Shown here: positions 1 through 1,300 of the stretch, one piece after another
Layout: every line of letters starts with the position of its first letter
How positions within the stretch are numbered: the first letter of the stretch is position 1
Sequence record: PV691511.1
Origin: Escherichia phage WPEC2
Reading direction: 5' to 3' (one strand)
Length of the DNA: 64,000 nt
Notes under the pieces: generated by a model
Databases searched by the model: none
Told to the model about the DNA's origin: nothing
What the model saw: only the letters and a program-made list of their open reading frames with translations
Translations under genes and position numbers: made by a program

Positions 1-319
1 AACGCGAATTTTCGGGCCGTCAGGTCCACGCAGCGACAATTCCCAAATATCATGAGAATGAGAATAATTATCATTCGTATTCAATGACTTATGCAAGGCT
101 CATGCCAACGTAGCGACAAGGTGGGCCACTTGATTATAAATCACACAAACACTTATTTATCAATGGCTTGGCAACTTCATCATATGACGGAACAATGTCA
201 ACTGATGCCGCCCATGACAAGCAGACTATTATTTATATGAGAATGATTATTATTTAAACGTTTATTAACATAAAAACTAAAATAAATCAAGATTATTCTG
301 ATTTTATTTACGTTTAAGA

Positions 320-690
320 GAAGGTGCTCAACATATCGCTACGCGATAGTATTCGCCCCCGTGATATTTGCTCTTCTCTTAGTGCTCAACATTCCCGCCT
401 GTGGCGGTAACATTTCGCCCCCAAAATTATTGACTTTTATTCTATTATGTGCATAGTGTGCAATGTATCGGAATGATGATAATCATCCTCCCATTGCCCC
501 CAATAATTATTGCCATGCTAATGATCTCATACTGTAATTATTACAATGATTATTGTTATTGCGCTAATGTTATGATCTTGGTAATTACATATAATGCTAA
601 TAATAAGCCAGCGCAATAAGTGTAAGCGTCATTACGCTTGCAATTATTGCAAGCTACGCAATAACAAGAAATAACCATCACCGATGGTTA
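320..690. repeat. cluster of short direct repeats and palindromes in non-coding left region
   Basis: GTGCTCAACAT...TTCGCCCCC unit twice (325-360, 383-422); palindromes TATCGCtacGCGATA, CCGCCtgtGGCGG, CAATAATTATTG, GCTTGCAATtATTGCAAGC (636-654), AACCATCaccGATGGTT; no credible ORF. Confidence 0.5.
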
Positions 691-1272
691 TGATTGTTGG
701 GGTGTAGTTGGCTTATTATTAGCTCGCTATGTGTCCGGCATAGCGTGCTAATGATGATCCTGGGAATGATTCGTTTTGTAATGATTTCATTCAGTCACTA
801 TTATGGCAATAGTTATTATTTTAATCATTTCGTTTGTTATTGTTCGTTAGTTGGTTGTTTTGTAGTGTTATCGTTATCTTGCTTACTATTTATCATGGTT
901 AGATTGTTTGTCGTTATCAATCATCTTGCTATTATTTCTTTGATTATGATTAGTTTGCTTATTGTTTTAGGTTGTTGGTTAGTTTGTTGTTGCGAACTAT
1001 TATCAACATTATAGTTATGCACTTATATTGAATAGATACGCAAGGGTAGATGATAATGGTTATCATTGCACTAGAAAGTAAGGAAAACAGTGTTTTTGAT
1101 GGTTTGTTGTTGGTTGTTGATCGATTTTAACCACTCTAAACGGCTCTCTAACAGTCTGTTATCCTGGGAGGTATGGTTATTCATTTGATGGTTGATTAGC
1201 TCGATACCGCGAATTATTCAATTTTGTTCTGTGTCGGTTTTTCATAGGCGGAATCTATCAACATTGTTCGGG

Positions 1273-1300
1273 CAAAAAGAAAGGGCGCATTAAGCGCCCT
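1273..1300 (-). terminator. rho-independent terminator ending the leftward gene block
   Basis: AGGGCGC-attaa-GCGCCCT hairpin; on minus strand followed by TTTCTTTTTG; just downstream of stop of 1316..1699. Confidence 0.6.

Follow-up and report, generated by a model that had tools for sequence, protein, structure and literature searches.

Short direct terminal repeats (DTRs) and concatemer-junction processing characterize the T7/T3/SP6-type phages, with a hairpin intermediate at the T7 concatemer junction, while in lambda cosB/cosN the host architectural factor is IHF. Known phage satellites share the packaging site of their helper, as P4 does with the cos of P2 and as do the cos/pac-type phage-inducible elements (PICIs); to our knowledge, no such satellite of a large virulent myovirus is known in Enterobacteria. 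Among host regulatory sites, Fur operators of E. coli include those of the fepD-entS and fepB-entC promoters, and the FURTA assay makes use of Fur titration by multicopy boxes.

Closer to the locus described here, Phapecoctavirus belongs to the subfamily Stephanstirmvirinae, virulent myoviruses of ~150 kb, and its terminal repeat is already published and the routine part of this account. A 328-bp terminal repeat was reported for vB_EcoM_Schickermooser (Korf et al. 2019, PMC6563267), and a 342-bp DTR was obtained with PhageTerm for BME3 of the sister genus Justusliebigvirus (PMC12210895), a length that fits the ~340-nt spacing of conserved cut motifs that we measured in phage arall. The passages searched in these two papers give the length only and do not describe cut-site motifs, Fur boxes, a hairpin module or an island look-alike (PMC6563267, PMC12210895).

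Here we analysed the first 1,300 nt of a 64,000-nt stretch of Escherichia phage WPEC2 (PV691511.1; hereafter the window). Taken as a whole, this region is probably best explained as the Phapecoctavirus left terminus together with terminal non-coding DNA that holds cut sites, Fur boxes and a hairpin module. The Fur cluster, a sigma-70-like promoter beneath one of its boxes, the structured element and the island look-alike are new with respect to the papers searched.

The left genome end and its terminal repeat

Deposited records and the two papers together identify window 1-1300 as the left physical end of a Phapecoctavirus genome, beginning with the following feature.

1-328: left copy of the direct terminal repeat (DTR), 328 bp; position 1 is the physical left end

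Across 1-1300, the sequence is 100% identical to that of WPEC1, and positions 1-328 recur unchanged as the last 328 nt of the WPEC1 record. Comparison with related genomes, one of the checks proposed in an earlier note written from the sequence alone, upheld this picture: the repeat recurs with the same boundaries, identical at both record ends, in Schickermooser (329 nt, its ends aligning base for base with window 1-328) and Mt1B1_P17 (328 nt). The boundaries agree in three independently sequenced phages, additional records begin or stop at the same base, and one further assembly breaks exactly at 329. Comparisons were made with GenBank phages because a scan of IMG/VR with a conserved 17-mer yielded three contigs only.

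Many relatives have been deposited with this region internal and without repeats, as would be expected if the genome were circularly permuted (headful), the 328-nt repeat a product of overlap in assembly and the region an ordinary internal intergenic spacer. We consider this highly improbable, given that the three independent assemblies agree on both boundaries to the base, that another breaks exactly at 329, that short terminal repeats appear in two papers, one of them by PhageTerm (PMC6563267, PMC12210895), and that a conserved, related motif stands at both boundaries. The same sequence at both ends, with fixed boundaries and conserved cut sites in independent isolates, instead points to a short-DTR terminus. 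Thus, where the earlier note offered a terminal region, a packaging site or a replication origin, the first two stand by virtue of the DTR, the shared boundaries and the cut motifs, whereas the origin lacks supporting signals. The non-coding DNA extends beyond position 1: in relatives with records that continue across it, a further 285 nt to its left are gene-free; on the right, non-coding DNA lies between the DTR and the last gene of the minus-strand block.

Cut sites, repeat units and an island look-alike

Four features surround the two cuts (a slash marks the cut).

1-56 (plus strand): the left cut/recognition site, right half (AACGCGAATTTT...GCCGTCAGGTCCACGCAGCGACAATTCCCAAATATCA); shared with satellite-like islands of E. 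coli
285-335 (plus strand): conserved right cut-site block AAATCAAGA..TTCTGATTTTATTTACGTTTAAGAGAAGGTGCT/CAACAT; cut between 328 and 329
324-360 (plus strand): repeat unit 1, consisting of GTGCT/CAACAT, a hairpin and TTCGCCCCC; contains the right cut
382-422 (plus strand): repeat unit 2, a second copy of unit 1 that phAPEC8_ev052 and the phiWec phages lack

Both DTR boundaries share ...AAGA..G(G)TGCT/YAAC, reading ...ACGTAAGAAGTGCT(T)/AACGCG on the left and ...ACGTTTAAGAGAAGGTGCT/CAACAT on the right, with TGCT just before the end in both, and this motif is conserved across Stephanstirmvirinae genera. The left cut can be placed only to within 1 nt, giving a repeat of 328 or 329 nt; there, positions 1-12 are invariant in eight genomes, and the junction ...TGCTT/AACGCGA is kept in Justusliebigvirus, Tr1 and phi1_175008. 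At the right cut, record ends fall on the site and the motif is kept in all lineages. Mechanistically, we posit that in replicating concatemers the phage terminase would recognise two sites, the ~85 nt that span the left boundary and the 285-335 block, and cut after TGCT at each, the repeat being duplicated as in T7-type phages.

The two imperfect direct repeats of the earlier note (GTGCTCAACAT...TTCGCCCCC) are present at 324-360 and 382-422, and GTGCTCAACAT is unique to them within the 64 kb. The hairpin sequence of unit 1 varies between phages while its flanks are kept, and unit 2, being absent in phAPEC8_ev052 and phiWec, is dispensable; only 16% of columns are invariant across the hypervariable stretch 336-537. 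What the earlier note called iteron-like is the right cut site, in unit 1, and a dispensable copy of it, in unit 2.

This result also bears on whether the region is chiefly a phage replication origin, with the GTGCTCAACAT units as iterons and the palindromes and AT-rich DNA as unwinding or loading sites. The composition would suit such a role: the region is gene-free and AT-rich (GC 0.355, with >80% A+T at 221-320) and has many repeats and palindromes, and 538-1300 is conserved with no assigned function, so that an origin could lie somewhere within it. However, there are only two units, the first coinciding with the genome end and the second missing from phAPEC8_ev052 and phiWec; a single 8/9 DnaA-box match and one IHF core were seen, with no adjoining initiator gene; and GC skew merely tracks gene orientation. 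Searches of the region for DnaA boxes, IHF sites and GATC clustering gave nothing notable, and the combination typical of iteron origins (at least three regularly spaced conserved repeats, an initiator, and DnaA boxes or an unwinding element) was not found. We therefore regard a chiefly replicative role as improbable, and read the repeats as part of the terminus. The strong conservation that Phapecoctavirus and phiWec share over 538-1300 may in part stem from recent exchange and not from selection.

A separate line of evidence for a packaging signal comes from the host. Islands of ~12 kb, integrated at tRNA genes in 233 of 5426 E. coli genomes (4% of complete genomes), carry an ~85-nt copy of the sequence across the left cut site, with 83-89% identity to window -29..+56 (83.5% over the 85 nt spanning the cut); for the 1-56 half-site, the 233 genomes match at 83-97% identity. 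Carriers include O104:H4 2009EL-2050 and ETEC4067. The islands carry their own capsid, tape-measure-like and Dit-like proteins, and Stephanstirmvirinae capsid proteins are among the closest relatives of the island capsid in the phage collection. No terminase or portal was recognisable among the 10 of ~15 ORFs scanned, which included all large ones, and no right-cut-like site was found in the islands, where only a TTTAAGAGAA 10-mer occurs ~1.6 kb away. With a close copy of a helper's cleavage site and no terminase of their own recognised among the scanned ORFs, the islands look like phage satellites, and we infer that they may be packaged by these phages. Their copy of the left cut site independently supports the view that this sequence would serve as a packaging signal. 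The look-alike also raises the possibility that large virulent myoviruses have a satellite family.

Coding potential, terminator and conserved non-coding DNA

Beyond the repeat lie one spurious open reading frame, one terminator and two conserved non-coding stretches.

694-1014 (plus strand): spurious ORF (WPEC1_CDS004), 106 aa; broken in 7/7 aligned relatives
761-1027: GT-rich conserved non-coding stretch; A/C-rich and G-poor on the minus strand
1071-1281: conserved non-coding stretch downstream of the 1028-1057 promoter, from alignments
1282-1300 (minus strand): intrinsic terminator of the minus-strand block (AGGGCGC-TTAAT-GCGCCCT then TTCTTTTT), with a T-run after the stem

The absence of any credible gene, as originally noted, is borne out by the relatives: the sole long ORF (694-1014, plus strand) is not kept, and in genomes of 91-95% identity the longest stop-free stretches of that region are 53-71 aa, in differing frames. 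Most GenBank relatives annotate nothing here, and only WPEC1/4/6 and ETEC-TG list six tiny CDS. These annotations, along with an AGGAGG-GTG start ahead of a 33-codon ORF at ~1085 in some relatives, are what could be said for 1-1300 encoding small proteins. Against this, no ORF is kept in frame or length among 91-95% identical genomes, and the small ORF at 1090-1188 is not conserved, having no start in phiWec and a stop in ECML-183-2. A coding role thus seems very remote, and, judged by these alignments, 1-1300 is free of protein-coding genes; since it is the terminal repeat and genome end that lie here, the annotation of six small CDS in WPEC1 is almost certainly spurious.

The minus-strand block does end at the edge of the region, with the last gene (1699->1316) followed by the terminator (1300->1282). 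Its 7-bp stem (six G-C pairs) lies 16 nt past the stop codon that ends gene 1316-1699, shows no change among 13 sequences and, with the T-run, has the form of a Rho-independent terminator. The GT-rich stretch is also real (800-1000 is 54% T, 19% G, 18% A and 9% C) and belongs to 761-1027, in which 80% of columns are invariant between Phapecoctavirus and phiWec and which is not alignable to Justusliebigvirus. Speculatively, its A/C-rich, G-poor minus-strand reading may load Rho, which would keep transcripts that leak past the terminator from reaching the terminus. Further right, 1170-1300 is 88% identical to Justusliebigvirus (as part of a 1170-1936 alignment that extends through the flanking gene) and 1196-1299 is ~80% identical to Av-05. 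A structured RNA at 1040-1318 was considered and is not claimed, as RNAalifold support (13 sequences) was weak, with a covariation term of -1.48.

A cluster of predicted Fur boxes

The elements listed in the earlier note are all present at, or within a few bases of, its coordinates. Its TGTGCA direct repeat occurs at 448-453 and 457-462 and is not conserved in relatives. Its "at least six" short perfect palindromes are exactly six when the arms must reach 6 nt and the centre may not exceed 1 nt (475-487, 501-512, 533-545, 636-654 of 19 bp, 1084-1096 and 1149-1161), a number reached by 0 of 300 dinucleotide shuffles (1.25 +/- 1.0). Most of these palindromes, unrecognised as such in the earlier note, belong either to Fur-box-like operators or to the stems of a conserved hairpin module. 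The Fur-box-like sites, taken at a threshold of at least 14/19 matches to the E. coli 19-bp consensus GATAATGATAATCATTATC, are listed here with the promoter-like sequences that accompany them.

52-86: Fur-box array (GAGAAT GAGAAT AATTAT CATTCG); 16/19 at 54-72 and 14/19 at 60-78
67-96 (minus strand): promoter-like TTGCAT-18-GATAAT, its -10 within the Fur array; reads toward position 1
236-257: second DTR Fur box (ATGAGAATGATTATTATT); 14/19
469-490: lineage-specific Fur box, 15/19; within the hypervariable 336-537
536-608: two Fur-like boxes (542-560 and 590-608, each 14/19) and the palindrome TGTAATTATTACA
1028-1070 (plus strand): sigma-70-like promoter TTGAAT(TTGCAT)-18-GATAAT, overlapped by Fur boxes; 14/19 at 1046-1064 and 15/19 at 1052-1070

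Statistically, the six loci (14-16/19) give 1-1300 ~100 times the density of the rest of the window, with eight 19-mers of at least 14/19 in 1.3 kb versus four in the other 62.7 kb; shuffles average 0.19 and 0 of 300 reach eight, and of 2000 palindromic motifs permuted at constant composition, only 0.05% perform equally well. The enrichment recurs in 11/11 related gaps tested, the counterparts of this gene-free DNA in relatives as distant as Av-05; their best sites score 15-17/19. On the same scale, the proven K-12 operators score 13 (fepA-fes), 15 (fepB-entC) and 16 (fepD-entS) of 19, so that in consensus match the predicted WPEC2 boxes are comparable with proven operators.

Evolutionarily, both DTR boxes are kept across Phapecoctavirus and phiWec and stand out from a repeat that has otherwise diverged: the 52-86 array has 80% invariant columns versus 48% in the neighbouring DTR interior, and 236-257 has 95% despite diverged flanks. 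The 469-490 box is found only in the window, tuntematon and ECML-183-2, and is missing in other close relatives. The promoter proper spans 1028-1057; five lineages (Phapecoctavirus, phiWec, Justusliebigvirus, phi1_175008 and Av-05) retain its hexamers and their 18-nt separation, with differing spacer sequence. The promoter-like 67-96 (minus strand) is weak, with a -35 kept in Phapecoctavirus only; within a concatemer, or in the copy at the right end, it faces the early genes.

Could these boxes go unused by host Fur, and instead be sites for a phage dimeric protein or AT-rich symmetric DNA for bending or H-NS? Only the box at 1046-1070 overlaps a promoter conserved across lineages, no promoter being recognised at the remaining boxes save the weak 67-96 (minus strand); the literature searched held nothing relevant on Fur in these phages; and a phage protein of similar palindromic specificity would yield the same pattern. 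However, the matches fit the specific Fur arrangement, with composition-matched permuted palindromes almost never reaching the count; the best sites (16-17/19) score as high as proven K-12 operators or higher; phages of Escherichia, Klebsiella and Citrobacter alike carry this consensus; and the -10 overlap at 1052-1057 is classical Fur-operator geometry. We thus hold the non-Fur explanation to be unlikely, and infer that host Fur would bind the predicted boxes. A role for Fur as a packaging co-factor was also considered and seems unlikely: the copy carried by the islands stops precisely at the start of the Fur array, and the Fur sites are therefore probably not in the packaging signal.

Functionally, we posit that host Fur-Fe2+ would bind the boxes and, at 1028-1070, repress the rightward host-type promoter when iron is plentiful, while the DTR boxes would be situated upstream of the early promoters at the opposite end. 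Additionally, with ~six sites per genome, rising copy number could soak up Fur, and such a sink during replication would de-repress host iron uptake. If true, infection by phage-therapy-relevant coliphages would be linked to iron availability, a condition very different in laboratory broth from that in the gut or in infected tissue.

A covarying hairpin module

The 19-bp palindrome singled out in the earlier note (636-654) proved to be the first helix of a larger structure.

613-760 (plus strand): conserved four-helix module, from covariation and folding
636-654 (plus strand): helix 1, from paired columns
655-659/702-706 (plus strand): helix 2, from paired columns
671-691 (plus strand): helix 3, from paired columns
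717-753 (plus strand): helix 4, from paired columns

This four-helix module retains its pairing through compensatory changes. Across 14 sequences from five lineages, 99.6% of cells are paired versus at most 51% with the partners slid, double changes occur at five pairs, and the covariation score (0.148 versus 0.078) is reached by 0 of 500 shuffles. Thermodynamically, the folding energy is -77.1 kcal/mol (z -10) for the plus strand and -52 kcal/mol (z -5) for the minus strand. A covariance model (R1) finds the module once per genome in Stephanstirmvirinae and not in Av-05. Rfam 15 returned nothing at E<=1 for 1-3000, and with laxer filters over 580-800 the best hit reached 19 bits versus a gathering score of 100, assigning no family; as a covarying structured element absent from Rfam, the module is a candidate new phage RNA.

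No conserved promoter or terminator was found to frame the module, and two candidate promoters were rejected: TTGACT-16-CATAGT (430-457) is not kept in ev052 or phiWec, and TATAAT (590-595) has no conserved -35. This would also suit a module that works as DNA, forming cruciforms or single-strand hairpins in end processing or priming, or offering palindromic protein sites, as would its position 285-430 nt from a cut site and helix 1, a perfect 19-bp palindrome whose arms are invariant in 14 sequences and which fits protein recognition of DNA equally with RNA. Yet helices 3 and 4 vary by compensatory swaps with their sequence not kept, U.G pairs occur in five columns on the plus strand only, and the plus strand folds 25 kcal/mol better than the minus strand, an asymmetry that fits a single-stranded plus strand, whether RNA or DNA. 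We consider the DNA role a serious contender, somewhat short of an even chance; the module would act single-stranded, most likely as plus-strand RNA.

Joining these threads, the Fur cluster may iron-gate terminal transcripts, possibly including the conserved structured element, while acting as a Fur sink, and the islands may be novel satellites that copy the left packaging signal. We offer this joint scenario tentatively, as possible and on balance doubtful.

Comparison with known systems

In its ends, WPEC2 most resembles the T7/T3/SP6 type ("DTR short" in PhageTerm), with fixed, sequence-defined ends and a few-hundred-bp repeat at both, short repeated motifs and palindromes beside the repeat, and a single repeat copy per concatemer junction that needs duplication during cutting. 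It differs in being a 150-kb myovirus unrelated to T7, with its own motif ...TGCT/YAAC before both cuts, and in having left-end genes transcribed toward the terminus and early promoters at the opposite end. The likeness to lambda cosB/cosN with IHF lies in host-protein sites beside a terminase cut site; in WPEC2, though, the Fur sites are probably outside the packaging signal.

With E. coli Fur operators the predicted boxes share the consensus at 14-17/19, overlapping hexamer arrays, a box over a -10 and clustering. They differ in being predicted, in their place at the genome end of a virulent phage, within its terminal repeat and the non-coding DNA there, and in having no iron-uptake or iron-related gene downstream.

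Finally, the islands resemble P4 with the P2 cos and cos/pac-type PICIs in being small integrative elements without a recognised terminase that carry a copy of a helper cleavage site. The literature searched describes no satellites of this subfamily. Unlike those systems, the presumed helper is a large virulent DTR myovirus, and the islands bring capsid, tape-measure-like and Dit-like proteins of their own together with a look-alike of the left site only.

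The gene-free left end is a genome terminus

The gene-free left end at window 1-1300 is real, with the features listed in the earlier note all present, and it is the terminus of the genome. The WPEC1 record ends in an exact copy of window 1-328, and the identical record ends of Schickermooser (329 nt) and Mt1B1_P17 (328 nt) share the window's boundaries, starting at (T)AACGCGAATTTT and ending at ...AAGAGAA..TGCT; several further records start or stop at the same base, and one assembly is broken exactly at 329. The direct terminal repeat itself is not new, having already been published for the genus: Korf et al. 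give Schickermooser 'a terminal repeat of 328 bp' (PMC6563267), and Justusliebigvirus BME3 has a 342-bp repeat by PhageTerm (PMC12210895), in agreement with the ~340 nt that separate the two conserved boundary motifs of phage arall. Where genomes are deposited in a different permutation, 285 nt more of non-coding DNA lie left of the repeat, followed by minus-strand early genes. The earlier note had read the region as a replication origin, packaging site or terminal region; the latter readings are correct, with the repeat at both genome ends and boundaries common to independent records, and an origin is unsupported: the region has a single DnaA-box match (8/9) and a single IHF core, its iteron-like repeat has just two copies, and no initiator gene lies beside it.

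Comparison with related genomes, proposed in that note as a check, finds the region present in relatives, with gaps in remoter lineages. Escherichia phage WPEC1 (PV659873.1) matches window 1-1300 at 100% identity over its first 1300 nt, as do the ends of WPEC4 and WPEC6; ~70 other phages, nearly all Phapecoctavirus, are 90-96% identical. The WPEC1 match is unbroken to window 3108 and diverges from 3109 on, through an indel or a replaced segment. The window therefore comes from a sister genome and not from WPEC1 itself, whose record, at 161 kb, is ~10 kb above typical members. Remoter copies occur in phiWec phages (82%), Citrobacter phage Tr1 (70%), Klebsiella phage phi1_175008 and Justusliebigvirus (phi92-like), and in Avunavirus Av-05 the copy is limited to the last 100 nt of the region; all five lineages have a gene-free gap of 1.5-2.0 kb at the same place.

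At the region's right edge the minus-strand block does terminate as described, with a gene (1699->1316) followed by a clean intrinsic terminator (1300->1282). That gene (127 aa) and its 3' flank have 88% DNA identity to Justusliebigvirus, far above the neighbouring DNA; it is called 'head decoration protein' in one record, yet sits among early-type small genes, and tuntematon, ev052 and phiWec carry a different gene in its place with the same terminator adjoining. Beyond it lies a second, smaller gene-free gap (1700-1953). On the minus strand this gap has the area's best sigma-70 match, TTGACA-17-TATTAT at 1778->1750; it also contains a short tandem repeat (1797-1835) and a terminator (1946->1917). 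Elsewhere in the window, ten plus-strand tRNA genes (30763-32688; Met, Arg, Ser, Asn, Thr, Gly, Gln, Pro, Ile, Met) form a short plus-strand island where GC skew switches sign.

Cut sites and adjoining repeat units

Junctions of the terminal repeat (^ marks the cut)
Left junction: ...GGCGCATACGTAAGAAGTGCT(T)^AACGCGAATTTTCGG
Right junction: ...TTTATTTACGTTTAAGAGAAGGTGCT^CAACATATCGC

If the ambiguous T is counted on the right, both junctions have ACGT..AAGA..G(G)TGCT ahead of the end, with YAAC following. In phiWec, Tr1, phi1_175008 and Justusliebigvirus the left motif persists as GAGAGGTGCTT^AACGCGA; the right motif persists in all lineages as TTTAAGA.A...GCT^CAACA. With four occurrences in 64 kb, TGCT[CT]AAC is too common to define the site alone, and recognition must use the flanks.

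The two GTGCTCAACAT...TTCGCCCCC direct-repeat units that had been termed iteron-like are both present (324-360 and 382-422), and their 11-mer has no other occurrence in 64 kb. Their reading as iterons is not supported: the right cut falls within unit 1, which is thus the right cut site plus the downstream hairpin, and unit 2 is its duplicate, missing from phAPEC8_ev052 and the phiWec phages. The sequence of the hairpin after the right cut varies from phage to phage between constant flanks, and in Justusliebigvirus CAACAAATAG is instead repeated two or three times after the cut. Additionally, the motif CG(C/T)AGCGA(C) lies twice in the repeat (27-37 and 106-117), on the opposite strand in the unit 1 hairpin (337-349, minus), twice in the Av-05 gap (about 3040-3125 of L019, a stretch of another record) and inside the segment common to the E. 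coli islands described below; within the packaging signal, it may be what a protein recognises.

A candidate cluster of Fur operators

The region's perfect palindromes with arms of 6 nt or longer number exactly six, the 19-mer at 636-654 among them, against 1.25 by dinucleotide shuffling (0/300 shuffles get to six). Most of its short, AT-rich palindromes are similar to the Fur box of E. coli, GATAATGATAATCATTATC.

Fur-box matches in window 1-1300
54-72: 16/19
60-78: 14/19
239-257: 14/19
472-490: 15/19
542-560: 14/19
590-608: 14/19
1046-1064: 14/19
1052-1070: 15/19

Eight 19-mers reach at least 14/19 here, against four in the other 62.7 kb and 0.19 in shuffled 1-1300 (0/300 shuffles get to eight). 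Only 0.05% of permuted Fur half-site palindromes (n=2000) get eight hits, so the signal is specific to the Fur arrangement and not to composition. All 11 related gaps tested are likewise enriched (4-10 sites each against 0.1-0.34 expected; 0/300 shuffles match the observed number), with top scores of 17/19 (phiWec, Justusliebigvirus), 16/19 (Tr1, phi1_175008) and 15/19 (Av-05); scored in this way, the proven operators fepA-fes, fepB-entC and fepD-entS of K-12 reach 13, 15 and 16. When six Phapecoctavirus genomes are aligned with two of phiWec, the two Fur boxes of the repeat stand out (80% and 95% invariant columns) from its diverged interior (87-235, 48%). The box at 469-490, found in some genomes only, lies inside a hypervariable stretch (336-537, 16% invariant).

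Sigma-70-like promoters
1028-1057, plus strand: TTGAAT 1028-1033 (TTGCAT in relatives) and GATAAT 1052-1057, 18 nt apart
96->67, minus strand: promoter-like TTGCAT-18-GATAAT inside the repeat, toward the early genes

A Fur box overlies the -10 of the 1028-1057 promoter, and this arrangement (1028-1070), a putative Fur-repressed promoter, has the layout that is standard for such promoters. Both hexamers recur at the same distance in Phapecoctavirus, phiWec, Justusliebigvirus, phi1_175008 and Av-05, with differing spacer sequences. The promoter reads right into ~230 nt of conserved non-coding DNA ending at the shared terminator hairpin, which in several relatives has a T-run behind it on the plus strand as well; downstream of the promoter, the small ORF is not conserved in the relatives compared and no RNA structure is convincing. 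The -35 of the putative 96->67 promoter is kept in Phapecoctavirus only. Two conserved GGGGTGT(G)TC(G/A)AAAATAAT elements, outside the window and 80-160 nt to the left of the repeat, appear to be the early promoters proper; they read into the minus-strand early genes of the other genome end (in stretches of other records, L003 about 14790-14875 and L005 399-486, Schickermooser orientation); four (A/T)CATGGCAA repeats lie between these elements and the left cut.

Functionally, we posit that the boxes would serve iron-dependent repression of the terminal promoters, the best supported of three roles; titration of Fur by many sites on replicating genomes would come second, and displacement of H-NS from AT-rich DNA last.

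A covarying hairpin module

Four helices are supported by RNAalifold and pair counts in an alignment of 14 sequences from five lineages (window 596-790).

Helices of the module at 613-760
636-654: helix 1, the 19-nt palindrome, arms invariant and loop variable
655-659 with 702-706: helix 2
671-691: helix 3, enclosed by helix 2
717-753: helix 4

Pairing holds in 99.6% of cells, against at most 51% with the partners slid; five pairs show double-sided changes, and the covariation score is 0.148 against 0.078 (0/500 shuffles attain 0.148). The fold seems to be that of a single strand of plus polarity, RNA or DNA: U.G pairs occur in five columns on the plus strand, and RNA folding gives -77.1 kcal/mol (z = -10) for that strand and -52 (z = -5) for the minus strand. 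The module is single-copy, absent in Av-05 and without an Rfam match. An extra hairpin before helix 1 has a wholly different sequence in Phapecoctavirus and Justusliebigvirus. Phapecoctavirus has a 17-bp hairpin (613-629 with 634-650) whose 3' arm overlaps the 5' arm of the invariant 636-654 palindrome, which makes the two mutually exclusive and could provide an alternative-structure switch; in Justusliebigvirus the two hairpins are separate.

The ORF at 694-1014 is, as had been proposed, spurious: it arises from a 54% T stretch and is disrupted in 7/7 aligned relatives, whose longest open stretches (53-71 aa) are in inconsistent frames. The GT-rich stretch at 761-1027 is 80% invariant between Phapecoctavirus and phiWec and not alignable in Justusliebigvirus; its minus strand is rich in A and C and poor in G, as Rho loading sites are, which weakly suggests a second barrier to transcripts that read through the terminator.

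E. coli islands copying the left cut site

Three features, each proposed on comparative sequence evidence, were not found in the available literature: the candidate Fur-operator cluster with the one promoter that a Fur box overlaps, the hairpin module with its covariation, and the satellite-like islands bearing a copy of the left cut site. Window 1-56 is matched in 233 of 5426 complete E. coli genomes, and in strain F5505-C1 the similarity spans the cut, from -29 (bases left of window 1 being negative) to +56, at 83.5% over 85 nt.

Island matches to window -29 to +56
NZ_CP024257.1: L025 5974-6056
NC_018650.1: L027 about 8975-9056
NZ_CP122685.1: L028 about 8960-9041

The copy would mark -29 to +56 as the functional recognition and cleavage signal; a right-cut-like site was looked for in the island and not found. 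Fur is thought unlikely to be a packaging co-factor, because the island look-alike ends exactly where the first Fur array starts. The match sits in a ~12-kb island adjoining tRNA-Leu, tRNA-Thr or tRNA-Gly, depending on the strain, with iterons visible in one of its gaps and genes for a tyrosine integrase, an O-like replication initiator, a serine invertase, a Dit-like tail protein, a tape-measure-like protein and a major head protein; no terminase or portal was recognisable among the 10 of ~15 ORFs scanned, every large one included. Evolutionarily, the closest relatives of the head protein among 50,697 phage records include Stephanstirmvirinae capsid proteins, and it has 24.7% identity to the window's capsid gene product (56739-57728). 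The island resembles a satellite that borrows its helper's packaging enzyme, and is possibly a satellite of these virulent phages.
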